From: Escherichia coli | GTDB lineage: Bacteria; Pseudomonadota; Gammaproteobacteria; Enterobacterales; Enterobacteriaceae | Length of the DNA stretch: 60,072 nt | NCBI RefSeq assembly: GCF_017348835.2 | Contig: NZ_CP072314.1 | Reading direction: 5' to 3' (one strand) | Shown here: positions 40,901 to 43,900 of the stretch, piece after piece | Layout: each line of letters starts with the position of its first letter | How positions within the stretch are numbered: position 1 is the stretch's first letter | Program-made: the position numbers

Positions 40901-43900
40901 TAGGTAATCAGTCCCAGCTCTGACAGGAACGTCAGGGCCCGGGTGGCACGGGTGATGGAGAGTTTTCCGGCAGCAGACTCCGTCGCCAGTCCGCACTCAA
41001 TGGCCAGTGTGGTGATGGAGCACTGGACGCGGTTGGCCAGCGGGTCATAGTGGAAACACAGCCCCTGCAGCAGCGCATCAATGGCACGTCGACGCAGCAC
41101 CGGTGGCATGCGCCGGCGCAGACCACGCGAACGGGCGTGTGCCACATGAATGGCGAAATCAAAACGGGAGGTGAAGCCCACCGCCTTTTCCATCAGTTTT
41201 TCGCAGAACTTCAGCGTTCCGGCACCTTTACGGGGTGTAAACACCGGATTCGGGTTCTTTACCTGGCGGTAATAGGTTTGTTGAAGATCAGTCACACCAT
41301 CCTGCACTTACAATGCGCAGAAGGAGCGAGCACAGAAAGAAGCCTTGAACTTTTCCGGGCATATAACTATACTCCCCGCATAGCTGAATTGTTGGCTATA
41401 CGGTTTAAGTGGGCCCCGGTAATCTTCTCAGTCGCCAAACTATTCGAAGATTATCGGGGTTTTTGCTTTTCTGGCTCCTGTAAATCCACATCAGAACCAG
41501 TTCCCTGCCACCTTACGGCGTGGCCAGCCACAAAATTCCTTAAACGCTCAGTAATCCAGCACTGACAGAAAAAACTAGCAAGAATGTGATCCCATCACAT
41601 CATATTCCGGTGACAGGCTTCTTTCTCGATAAGCCTTTCTATCAACTCTGCCTGAGTTACACCTTCCTCTGCACACAGACTGGTAAGGTAGTTTTTCAGT
41701 TCTGGCCTGACGAAAACCTTAATCTCTTTACATACAGATCGTTTGCGCGCAGAAGCAGCTCTCTGCCGCTCTGCTTCACTCAAAGGTTTACCCTTTCTGT
41801 ATGCTCGTTTTGCGCCAGATGAGGAAGCCACTGCATTTTCTGTCTGCGACATCTCGCCTCCTCAATACTCAAACAGGGATCGTTTCGCAGAGGATACTAC
41901 AGTTTTTTGAAATCAGCGACTTGAAAGTTGTGACTATGATCTGTGTTGGCGCACAAATCATGTCTGATTACGACCGTTTAATGTGATTTTGATAATGAAA
42001 TGACGAAAAAACAGAAAATAACTAAACATGTGTGCCGGCCCCGGGCGGGATCGGCGATTTCTGAAATGTGAAAGCTAGTCCGAGGGACTATCGATTTACA
42101 TCATTATAAAGCTACGCCCAATAAAATTGCGTAACATCAAATTTTATAAAACAAGGTCTCAGGTGCCACAACTGACTGAACAAAACCAAAATGCTCATAA
42201 AAAACTCTGGCGTCATCATCAATTGCATGAACCATAACAGCCTTAATGCCAACCTGTTCAGCCAGATTGGCAACCCGATGAATGGCATCACTCAGCAGCC
42301 ATTTACCGAAACCATGTCCCTGAGTACAAACATCGACAGCCAGACGCCCTAAAAGAACAACAGGTACAGGATTGGGCATATTATGGCGCAAACTGCGCCC
42401 AAGCTCGGCATGTGTGACAGAACCAGTAGCTAATGAGTAATACCCCACAACACGTAAAGTATCCTCCAGACAAATGACGAACGTTCGGGAAGCATTGAGT
42501 ATCTGGTTTTTCATAGCCCGCCCACGCAACCAGTTACTTAACACCTCATTCCCACAGTCAAATGGCTGAAGTATATGCTCATCTGTCAGCAATGCCGGCG
42601 CGGTGACATTTATTTCCATTCAGGCTTTACCGCCATCAGACGTTCACGCCCTTCTGCATTCTGTACAGGAGCTTCCAGTTGCGTAATAAATGAATCATAA
42701 CATTCATCATCCAGCACAAATAAACGCTGATCCAAGATGATGTTTTTAGCTTCCTGGTAAGCCAGTTCAATGATGAAATCAGTACGGTTCTTATTGACCA
42801 GGCTAGCGGCATAATCAATAACGGCTCGTTCCTCATCCGTTGCCCGGATGTTAATCTGATTTTCTCGCGGTGTTTTACGGATGTTTGCAGTAGTAGGCAT
42901 AACAACCTCCATTGGTAACAATTTGCTATACAATGAATGTTATCGCAAATGGTAACAGAACGCTATACAAAATCACTCATGGGGGAAAGTAATCCACCGA
43001 TAAAAATAATGACGAGCACTAAAAGTTGTAACGATGATCTGTGTTTGGGCACAAATCATCTCCGATTGCAGCCATTAAATATGATTTTGATTATTAAATT
43101 ACTGAAAAACAGGAAATATCTTAACCTGTGTGCCGGCCCCAGGCGGGACCGGCGGTTTCTGGTATATAGGGGGCTGCCCCTGAAATACCTAACACTGCCG
43201 GGCGGGGACTTCCGTGCTTCATAGGCCAGAGTTACCTACACCACTGTATTTCCTCTGTGAATATTCAGCTCACATAACTGTTCCCTGAATATCAGTGAAA
43301 AACACAACACCGTGGCGCACACGCGAGTAACCCAATAAGGGCATATTTCGTCATAAACTTTGACCTCTCTGCAAGGAAGAGGCTACAATCAGTAGTGCTA
43401 AGTACATCATGCAGACCTCACGAGTTAATGGATTAACAAGTGGGGTCTTCGCATTTCTGGTACCTGCGTCTTGCCTGAACCAAAAAGGCTCAGACACCCG
43501 CCGCGATAATACCACATTCCCCGTTACTGACTATTACCCCCATTTGTCTGTTTTTGTTACAAAAACGCCGGGAGCAAGGAAAACTTGCTTTTTCCCGTTT
43601 CCGGGGCTGGACAACTGAGCATTGCGAACGCGTCAGCTACGATGTTCCGGTGATTGCTGATCATCCCCTGTTGTATTCATAAACTGATTAACATTCATTC
43701 CGTCTAGTGCATAAACCTGCCAGTGAATATCTGCAGACAATGCCGGCCATGAAAAGATAAATAATACCAGCGGAATATATTTCCTCATGTTATTCTCCAT
43801 ATCAAATAAATGGCACCTGTATTTCAGGCATCCTGAATATTGCGACACACATTGAATAACACCTTATTTTGTGAAATAAATCACAAAATATAAAATCACG

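Follow-up and report, generated by a model that had tools for sequence, protein, structure and literature searches.

By its sequence, the two-gene cassette located upstream of repA2 in the window (the whole 60,072-nt stretch of Escherichia coli DNA analyzed here, from contig NZ_CP072314.1) is intact and orthologous to GmvAT, the GNAT/RHH type II addiction module of the TacAT family carried by the Shigella plasmid pINV. The repeats on either side of it represent two alleles of a discrete 140-bp sequence, R, which is normally present as a single copy immediately upstream of repA2. We consider it probable that this GmvAT ortholog came to be flanked by R alleles in one old event of insertion plus duplication and was then spread by homologous recombination. 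The coordinates of all features are collected in Table 1.

Table 1. Features of the repeat-flanked module and its neighbors in the window
Feature	Position	Strand	Remarks
repA1	41307..40438	-	Pfam IncFII_repA
CopA RNA	41380-41468	+	Rfam, 98 bits
repA2/copB, first gene of the IncFII/FIC replicon	41595..41852	-	Pfam RepB-RCR_reg, 6.5e-33
R-proximal	41924..42063	-	140-nt copy adjoining repA2; HP1 42034-42055, HP2 41936-41961
D, 73-nt spacer from toxin stop codon to R-proximal	42064..42136	-	Homologous across all cassette lineages
gmvT-type GNAT acetyltransferase toxin, 160 aa, intact	42137..42619	-	Pfam and PDB matches
gmvA-type DUF1778/RHH antitoxin, 96 aa	42610..42900	-	Pfam TacA1, 6.8e-19
Breakpoint between two cassette lineages	42676..42691	.	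GmvA codons ~70-75; informative-site switch
U, gmvA upstream region	42901..43021	-	Holds two 21-nt direct repeats, candidate operators
R-distal	43022..43161	-	140-nt copy adjoining hok remnant, variant allele; HP1 43132-43153, HP2 43034-43059
Decayed hok/sok (srnB-like) type I toxin-antitoxin locus	43162..43510	-	Rfam sok 43344-43499, 87 bits

The Flanking Repeats Are Two Alleles of a Discrete Unit

An earlier note on this DNA had described an RHH antitoxin gene overlapping a GNAT toxin gene between diverged repeats of ~135 bp at 41928-43161. The description holds, with the repeats measuring 140 nt and the arrangement spanning 41924-43161. A repeat search returned one family of two direct 140-nt copies with 83% identity and a start-to-start distance of 1098 nt. 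The two copies align on computation, as the note had supposed, with 116/140 identical positions by exact count, no gaps and a longest unbroken identity of 14 nt. BLAST against a 6-kb subject gave an E value of 1e-38 for R-proximal versus R-distal, so their similarity is not due to chance. In a MAFFT alignment that included 25-nt flanks, the similarity fades within a few bases at either end, and a shuffle test past the hok/toxin-side end of R detected no similarity (z about 0). Whether R adjoins the 3' UTR of hok, the spacer D or, in pCoo, unrelated DNA, its hok-side end falls at the same break point, and this constancy in three contexts defines R as a discrete unit. Over its full length, R-proximal shares 95% identity with pCoo's single R, and it is 88.6% identical to the single R of pGD31-F1928 (L001).

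Two further ideas about the ends of R were examined and set aside. The distances to the stop codon are alike (72-73 nt) and a hairpin occupies the same place, which had prompted the idea that homology extends beyond R, with D as a relic of the hok 3' UTR; the alignment scores were those of shuffled sequences (z -1.5 to +0.8). We also considered whether the right third of R-proximal has been decaying since its separation from hok. In this part, the proximal R is 63-85% identical to the empty-site consensus versus 85-98% for distal copies, but the 95%-identical full-length allele of pCoo weakens the decay reading, because it sits in a natural single-copy context without hok.

The Cassette Encodes an Intact GmvAT Operon

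The 958 nt between the R copies contain the two toxin-antitoxin genes, their promoter region and the 73-nt spacer, and nothing else. Both genes are on the minus strand with the antitoxin first, the gmvA stop overlapping the gmvT start by 10 nt, and gmvA begins at the ATG at 42900, which is preceded by GGAGG. The toxin matches GNAT models in Pfam at 1.5e-8 and 1e-7, with Acetyltransf_10, 7 and 1 (PF13673, PF13508 and PF00583) above their cut-offs, and it aligns over residues 1-160 with PDB chain 9ilr_A (E 3e-102); the TacT-type chains 5fvj and 7ak8 also match it (E about 3e-45). The alignment shows the QGHGFG motif as well as Tyr141, the latter at the Phe position of the 7ak8 chain, which we take to be the catalytic Tyr-to-Phe mutant of TacT. 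The antitoxin belongs to Pfam TacA1/DUF1778 (PF08681) and matches PDB entries 7zg6, 7f37 and 9ilr_B; its residues 57-96 correspond to the 42-residue peptide co-crystallized in 9ilr, an entry that represents a near-identical toxin/antitoxin pair and for which a literature search returned no relevant paper. Overlapping co-oriented genes, a GNAT toxin, a DUF1778 antitoxin and orthology to GmvAT together place the cassette among type II GNAT/RHH modules. RepA2 is likewise an RHH protein, and we asked whether antitoxin and RepA2 are duplicates that each follow an R copy; BLASTP between them gave E = 0.5 and the idea was dropped.

The module shares with TacAT of Salmonella and with AtaRT, ItaRT and KacAT a GNAT toxin, a DUF1778 antitoxin and overlapping genes with the antitoxin first (toxin versus AtaT, E about 1e-19; versus KacT, about 1e-17). 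These systems differ in being paralogous, with roughly 45% identity or less in aligned chains, and mostly chromosomal. TacT and AtaT, relatives of GmvT, acetylate charged tRNA. The closest relatives of the cassette are in Shigella: the toxin is identical to the S. dysenteriae pINV protein at 153/160 positions (7 differences) and the antitoxin at 88/96, the DNA is 90-92% identical to pINV, and 105 Shigella records match at about 92%. The pINV modules of S. flexneri, S. dysenteriae and S. boydii have the same two genes behind the same ~80-nt promoter/operator region as the window. Indeed, the ~80 nt ahead of the gmvA ATG are near-invariant in all lineages including Shigella, while the R-side part of U varies. 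U also holds the 21-nt direct repeats, at 42913-42933 and 42950-42970, which are invariant across lineages; a simple consensus scan of this upstream region called no promoter.

For the Shigella ortholog, experiments have demonstrated growth arrest by the toxin, neutralization by the antitoxin and Lon-dependent stabilization of the plasmid, best at 21°C (PMC6519299; PMC8923223). It is known for the family and for GmvAT that the toxin blocks translation using acetyl-CoA and that the antitoxin binds and neutralizes it through its C-terminal part, and the allele of the window would act likewise. By analogy with other TacA/AtaR antitoxins, the RHH N-terminus of GmvA probably represses the operon at the two conserved upstream 21-nt repeats. 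Lon would degrade the antitoxin, and cells that lose the plasmid would consequently be poisoned.

Occupied and Empty Sites Upstream of repA2

The neighboring repA2/copB, CopA antisense RNA and repA1 identify an IncFII/FIC (RepFIIA-type) replicon, with repA2 71 nt from R-proximal. The hok/sok remnant, gmvAT, repA2 and repA1 are all minus-strand genes. Relative to intact alleles, hok has suffered a -1 frameshift and a CAG>TAG change, its 5'-complementary element is altered, and a 27-nt deletion takes out its stop codon together with the hairpin after the stop. As read from these lesions, the hok neighbor is a pseudogene and not an intact hok/sok locus. At the hok/srnB-RepFIC/RepFIIA junction of F-like plasmids, the standard empty layout, present in thousands of plasmids, is hok-one R-repA2-copA-repA1; the window differs from it by an added 1098-bp block (cassette plus second R) and by the decay of hok.

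R matched 2,738 plasmids in PLSDB, versus 187 plasmids with the cassette; about 30 loci were inspected base by base and the other counts are BLAST summaries. Every cassette-free plasmid examined has exactly one R, in agreement with the view taken in the earlier note that the repeat is a conserved replicon-upstream sequence. In L001, both flanks of the window converge on the same 140 bp (positions 1681-1820), so that the cassette and one R copy (1098 bp) constitute an indel difference between the two plasmids. A single R also lies between repA2 and hok DNA in L048, L049 and L052-L056, is the only copy in L058 and L059, and occurs in non-hok contexts (pCoo and the yihA type). The single-R plasmids range over Klebsiella, Salmonella, Citrobacter and Enterobacter; the cassette, in contrast, is hardly found outside Escherichia and Shigella. 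In species-representative genomes, an 18-nt degenerate R pattern gave 32 matches, all in unrelated phyla, which is close to what chance alone predicts for 298 Gb.

The hok-R-gmvAT-R-repA2 arrangement recurs in the plasmids of L003-L009. Among metagenome contigs it is complete in L042, L043, L045, L047 and L050, and L044, which is cut inside gmvT, shows the distal part only. As it is seen in independent complete plasmids as well as in metagenome contigs, the arrangement is not an assembly artifact. U and the distal R are contiguous in 78/78 non-Shigella PLSDB plasmids that hold the gmvA upstream region, and the proximal R is present at every cassette locus examined; the same arrangement without the duplication, which would have contradicted the earlier note, was not encountered. 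CP056614 carries an R-D remnant bounded by IS. Our literature searches found no description of the repeat architecture.

The direct repeats on either side of the insertion might suggest a transposon, an IS or a site-specific cassette, with the repeats as target-site duplication or recombination sites. This is extremely improbable. The interval encodes no transposase, its ends have neither inverted repeats nor a short target duplication, and in no lineage do the two copies come close to being identical; to our knowledge, target duplications made by transposition are also at least ten times shorter than 140 nt.

The Window's Copy Is a Mosaic of Two Cassette Lineages

The informative sites change cleanly between 42676 and 42691 from L004-type (lineage B) to L005-type (lineage A). 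On the repA2 side there are 58 lineage-B-type sites with 2 exceptions, and on the hok side 32 lineage-A-type sites with 1 exception. Feature by feature, the repA2 side is 98.6-100% identical to L004 and the hok side 97.5-100% identical to L005; the toxin is 159/160 identical to lineage B and GmvA 95/96 identical to lineage A. The match to the first of these lineages extends from repA2 to gmvA codon ~75. As judged from these sites, the window's copy is a recombinant that joins R-proximal, D, gmvT and the gmvA 3' end of one lineage to the gmvA 5' part, U and R-distal of another. The identity of only 83% between its two R copies is largely a consequence of this dual origin. The earlier note had offered a hybrid of two related plasmids as one of its explanations: a hybrid does exist, but the crossover lies inside gmvA and not at the repeats.

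Composite alleles were also seen in R itself. The proximal R of L008 resembles a recombinant of two R alleles, and the single R of L001 is proximal-like in its left part but hok-linked in its right part.

Origin of the Duplicated Repeat

Both inner junctions, i.e., that between repeat and gmvA upstream region and that between toxin-downstream DNA and repeat, are non-homologous joints. They are common to all sampled lineages and homologous across these lineages and in Shigella. This gives no support to insertion by recombination within the repeat, as the earlier note had proposed. The occurrence of the same two junctions in every sampled lineage points instead to one old event of insertion plus duplication. 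In this event, a ~960-bp gmvAT segment would have been joined to two staggered points of a hok-R-repA2 interval, in a setting that could be two plasmid copies or a dimer or cointegrate, leaving R on either side. The whole block would then have moved among IncF backbones and been reshuffled by homologous recombination in flanking and internal homologous DNA. Intermediate forms, such as gmvAT-D-R without a distal R, were not found among the plasmids surveyed.

A possible but less favored history is a Campbell-type loop-in/loop-out, in which a circle with gmvAT and one R enters a resident R via RecA and can excise again. The direct, same-orientation repeats and the exactly one R of empty sites fit this scheme, as do the composite proximal R of L008 and the runs of 27-69 identical nt that lineage-B plasmids keep between their copies, which suffice for RecA. 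RecA usually needs roughly 20-30 nt of identity, however, and the copies of the window and of lineage A, 68-83% identical overall, share at most 14 unbroken nt and so fall below this need. The variant distal allele argues in the same direction: it occurs in only 33 PLSDB plasmids, with gmvA adjacent in 33/33, and is absent from cassette-free PLSDB plasmids as a whole or partial match of >=30 nt. The scheme also still requires a first event that placed R beside the cassette. If it were true, R-gmvAT would be a recombination-mobilized unit, and presence or absence of the cassette would be reversible.

We give similar, tentative weight to deletion within a cointegrate, in which one IncF replicon already had gmvAT-D-R-repA2 as its native surroundings, a second hok-R-repA2 unit lay upstream, and the two were fused by a deletion that began where the first R ends and reached into the DNA upstream of gmvA. 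A single new illegitimate joint suffices here. By replicon typing, multi-replicon IncF plasmids are the rule among the matches; moreover, the distal R belongs to hok-linked DNA and the proximal R is 95% identical to that of pCoo, in whose lineage R and hok are not neighbors. This allele argument is weakened, however, because later recombination demonstrably reshuffles the two sides, and no plasmid was found with gmvAT-D-R-repA2 minus the distal R, consistent with the 78/78 contiguity described above. Were it correct, the arrangement would be a genuine hybrid junction of two plasmids.

Finally, the cassette-bearing state could be ancestral for this replicon group and the common single-R plasmids could be products of R x R deletion. 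Such a deletion would recreate exactly the observed empty site, and the composite single R of L001 is compatible with it. We nevertheless regard this as very unlikely: for every cassette plasmid there are more than 10 with a single R, and the latter occupy broader host genera, a single R is found in the hok-less contexts named above, and the cassette-specific allele segments are in no empty site. One old insertion plus duplication is the preferred account.

Structure and Possible Role of R

Each R contains a GC hairpin (HP1) and HP2, a 10+6+10 palindrome with GATC in it, and both hairpins are kept in 21 R alleles. Minus-strand RNA of R folds with z = -3.4 to -4.7 (R-proximal -3.4, R-distal -4.3), and the plus strand with -1.1 to -2.2. 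Only 1/16 hairpin pairs is compensatory, with a covariation term of about 0. HP2 is near-invariant in sequence, and it could therefore equally be a protein-binding palindrome. A consensus scan inside R called neither a terminator nor a promoter; a terminator role would not be canonical, given that the U-run lies 22 nt past HP1. R had no match in Rfam at E <= 1, and comparison by eye with dif/cer Xer sites, the CRP site, the DnaA box and the IHF consensus showed no convincing match. Tentatively, R may be a structured element of the transcribed strand that ends or insulates upstream transcription (tra/finO/hok, gmvAT) before the copy-number control genes. Duplication of R would then let the insertion keep the upstream context of repA2 intact.

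It is tempting to extend this idea and to see R as a portable IncF insulator/terminator, and R-gmvAT-R as an addiction cassette that is mobilized by recombination and deliberately positioned where the copy-number control operon begins, although we think this improbable. If it were so, the duplicated R would control the amount of transcription from tra, hok and gmvAT that enters repA2/repA1, toxin-antitoxin expression would be coupled to replication control, and the divergence of the R copies would protect the cassette from deletion by RecA.

Relation to the Shigella Virulence Plasmid and Implications

Upstream of gmvA, pINV still has the first ~85 nt of R. It differs from the window in that the module sits among virulence genes, in a setting remote from the one described here, the upstream R is truncated beside an IS91-like element, and homology on the other side ends at the toxin stop codon. 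The context of the module is therefore more complete in the IncF arrangement hok-R-gmvAT-R-repA2, which we infer to be probably the older of the two.

GmvAT is already characterized and another copy adds little new biology; its repeat-flanked copy is genuine, but it is the kind of mark that recombination ordinarily leaves in plasmids, and a plasmid specialist would see nothing surprising in it. The comparison does define R as a discrete, very common 140-bp unit that precedes repA2 in about 2,700 plasmids, with a nearly invariant palindrome that is a candidate insulator or regulator of copy-number control. It also offers a clear case of an addiction module reshuffled by homologous recombination, with the crossover within the antitoxin gene, and reveals the probable source of the Shigella pINV module, of whose replicon-side IncF arrangement pINV keeps only an IS-truncated remnant.

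The cassette and its flanking repeats

A repeat search of the window returned two direct 140-nt copies of one sequence, R, which are 83% identical and spaced by 1098 nt, one beside repA2 (proximal R) and one beside hok (distal R). At both ends of R the similarity stops within a few bases. By exact count the copies agree at 116 of 140 positions, with no gaps and a longest identical run of 14 nt, and the copy-versus-copy BLAST gave E = 1e-38, which bears out an earlier note that placed the cassette between imperfect direct repeats of ~135 bp. Read 5' to 3' from finO (first) to repA1 (last), the features of the locus lie on the minus strand, the CopA RNA excepted.

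Coordinates of the locus, from finO to repA1, followed by other features of the window
Feature	Position	Strand	Remark
finO	44953..44384	minus	
hok/sok locus	hok (srnB-like) 43162-43510; sok at 43344-43499	minus	hok pseudogene; sok from Rfam
Distal R	43022-43161	minus	
U (gmvA upstream region)	between distal R and antitoxin	minus	121 nt
Antitoxin gmvA	42900..42610	minus	
Toxin gmvT	42619..42137	minus	10-nt overlap with antitoxin gene
Spacer D	between toxin and proximal R	minus	73 nt
Proximal R	41924-42063	minus	
repA2	41852..41595	minus	
CopA RNA	41380-41468	plus	
repA1	41307..40438	minus	
21-nt direct repeats in U	42913-42933, 42950-42970		
HP2 palindromes in R	41936-41961, 43034-43059		
52-aa ORF	43633-43791	minus	
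AS-pc02 match	43952-44137	plus	Rfam, 176 bits
Transfer region	44384-52363		largely deleted
isrC match	45234-45356		IS3-family element
traK remnant	46420-47133		
ALIL pseudoknot	49140-49256		
traJ 5' UTR and FinP	52252-52363		
ParA/ParB-like genes	21082-23066		
Group II intron domain match	29610-29687		
Autotransporter gene	30086-34069	plus	1327 aa

The toxin matches three GNAT models, all above cut-off, and aligns with PDB chain 9ilr_A over all 160 residues (3e-102) and with the TacT-type chains 5fvj and 7ak8 at about 3e-45. The antitoxin matches TacA1/DUF1778 (6.8e-19), and its residues 57-96 correspond to the antitoxin peptide of the 9ilr co-crystal. Since the proteins of Shigella dysenteriae pINV are identical to those of the window at 153 of 160 (toxin) and 88 of 96 (antitoxin) residues, the cassette is a GmvAT ortholog and, judged from these protein matches, is the already known GmvAT module. 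The GmvAT toxin is an acetyltransferase that blocks translation, and the system, which is Lon-dependent, confers stability on pINV and on a test vector, above all at 21°C (PMC6519299; PMC8923223). The 958-nt core was found in 187 PLSDB plasmids (105 Shigella, 79 Escherichia, 2 Salmonella and 1 Klebsiella). The ~80 nt 5' of the gmvA start codon, almost invariant across all lineages and Shigella, contain two 21-nt direct repeats that we read, from the analogy of other systems, as candidate operator sites, and the R-adjacent portion of U is variable between lineages.

R as a unit upstream of repA2

In the cassette-free plasmid pGD31-F1928, window 41300-42063 aligns with 1058-1820 and window 43022-44398 with 1681-3085 of its comparison locus, and therefore both flanks converge on a single 140-bp stretch, 1681-1820. 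One R each lies between repA2 and hok DNA in seven further cassette-free loci (L048, L049, L052-L056), and L058 and L059 also have a single R upstream of repA2. What the earlier note called a conserved replicon-upstream sequence is accordingly confirmed, present once per empty site. The proximal copy has matches in 2,738 plasmids, among them those of Escherichia, Klebsiella, Shigella and Salmonella. The hok-side break point of R is identical in three contexts, namely the hok 3' UTR, spacer D and unrelated DNA in pCoo, where a full-length R is 95% identical to the proximal copy; in plasmids of the yihA/DUF2726 type, all that is left of it is the ~80 nt nearest repA2. In these alignments R behaves as a discrete unit.

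The minus (transcribed) strand of R folds beyond shuffled sequence (z = -4.3, -3.4 and -4.7), and the plus strand folds less well (z = -2.2 and -1.1). Both hairpins, the GC-rich HP1 and HP2, a ~10-bp stem with GATC, are retained in 21 alleles. Among these, compensatory change occurs in only one pair and the HP2 sequence is nearly invariant, so that a function as RNA and one as a palindrome bound by protein are both possible; HP2 could be an RNA hairpin, a protein site or a Dam-related site. No Rfam family matches R, and a consensus scan of it called no promoter and no terminator. The HP2 palindrome, ATGATCTGTG-N6-CACAAATCAT, also occurs in pGD31-F1928 and in L052-L060, and in all R alleles examined it precedes the repA2 start by ~75-100 nt; this holds even for the yihA type, which lacks the remaining R. 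The single R of Salmonella Typhimurium pZ1323SSL0011-2 (L059, 2001-2140) apparently lacks HP1 through an internal deletion, and therefore one natural plasmid, at least, may do without this hairpin.

A mosaic of two cassette lineages

The window aligns, part by part, with different cassette lineages, represented by L005 (A) and L004 (B). For repA2, its upstream sequence, the left part of proximal R, D and gmvT, identity is 97.3-100% to B and 53-96% to A; for the right part of proximal R it is 93.8% and 64.5%; for gmvA, U, distal R and the hok 5' region it is 25-92% to B and 93.5-100% to A. The informative sites change type sharply between 42676 and 42691 (GmvA codons ~70-75), 58 B-type sites (2 exceptions) being followed by 32 A-type sites (1 exception). 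Of the two proteins, the antitoxin belongs with A (95/96) and the toxin with B (159/160), and antitoxin residues 68-96 are the same in every lineage. These comparisons show the window as a recombinant between lineages A and B, which largely accounts for the 83% identity of its two R copies. The earlier suggestion of a hybrid of related plasmids holds in that a crossover is demonstrable, and fails as to its site, which is inside gmvA and not in the repeats; insertion by recombination within R is unsupported.

The distal R allele is a variant that only 33 plasmids carry, in all 33 adjacent to gmvA, and the proximal allele family also includes the natural single copy of pCoo. Within one plasmid, the two R copies are 86-89% identical in lineage B (identical runs of 27-69 nt) and 68-72% identical in lineage A (runs of at most 12 nt).

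The inner junctions, R with U and D with R, are homologous across all lineages, which argues for one founding event. This may have been a single illegitimate insertion with its joints at staggered positions in two plasmid copies, a deletion inside a two-replicon cointegrate, or a Campbell-type integration of a circle carrying R; we found no intermediate form deciding among the three routes and detected no homology past the ends of R. A transposition footprint was rejected as the source of the flanking duplication, since transposase and terminal inverted repeats are absent and a length of 140 nt far exceeds that of such a footprint. No relationship between GmvA and RepA2 was detectable.

Neighbouring loci

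Compared with the intact alleles of pGD31-F1928 and L005, hok has lost its frame by a -1 shift near codon 11, a CAG codon has become the nonsense codon TAG, and a deletion of 27 nt has taken out the stop codon together with the next hairpin. Its CAGACACCC element, which would pair with the predicted 5' end of the mRNA, is also mutated. These hok defects are shared by L003, the closest relative. Between finO and hok lie the 52-aa ORF, with a signal-peptide-like N-terminus and no match in Pfam or NCBIfam, and the strong adjoining match to AS-pc02, an antisense RNA known from the IncFII plasmid pHK01. In the transfer region finO abuts the IS3-family element, further IS copies (ALIL pseudoknot) lie between the traK remnant and the traJ 5' UTR, and the plasmid is probably non-conjugative. 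The autotransporter, a serine protease with Peptidase_S6 and Autotransporter beta-domain, follows just after the group II intron domain match and, together with the ParA/ParB-like genes, points to an IS-rich virulence plasmid.

Distribution of the arrangement

The order hok (or its remnant), R, gmvAT, R, repA2 was found at every inspected non-Shigella cassette locus, comprising L003-L009 (E. coli, E. albertii and K. pneumoniae) and metagenome contigs L042, L043, L045, L047 and L050; contig L044, cut inside gmvT, has the distal part of this order. Later insertions are an IS200/605 element within D (L006), ISEc40 (L009) and a group II intron (L008). In PLSDB, U is contiguous with distal R in 78 records, all the non-Shigella matches to a query of U plus distal R. 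An orphan fragment in CP056614.1 (about 131950-132100) joins ~100 nt from the right side of R to the initial ~50 nt of D; it lies near pet and astA with IS66- and IS21-family elements on its borders, and has the look of a relic of the cassette arrangement.

Shigella pINV keeps only ~85 nt of R, the part nearest gmvA; homology ends on this side shortly before an annotated IS91-like element and on the other at the toxin stop codon. In S. dysenteriae pINV (L002, 3886-4048) what is left of R upstream of gmvA stops at GAAC, the annotated IS91-like element is ISSbo1, and R looks truncated by an IS insertion. From the remnant and these homology limits, pINV appears to derive from the IncF arrangement and to have been eroded by IS elements. 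The repeat architecture, of which we found no description in the searchable literature and which thus appears undescribed, is an ordinary product of plasmid recombination.
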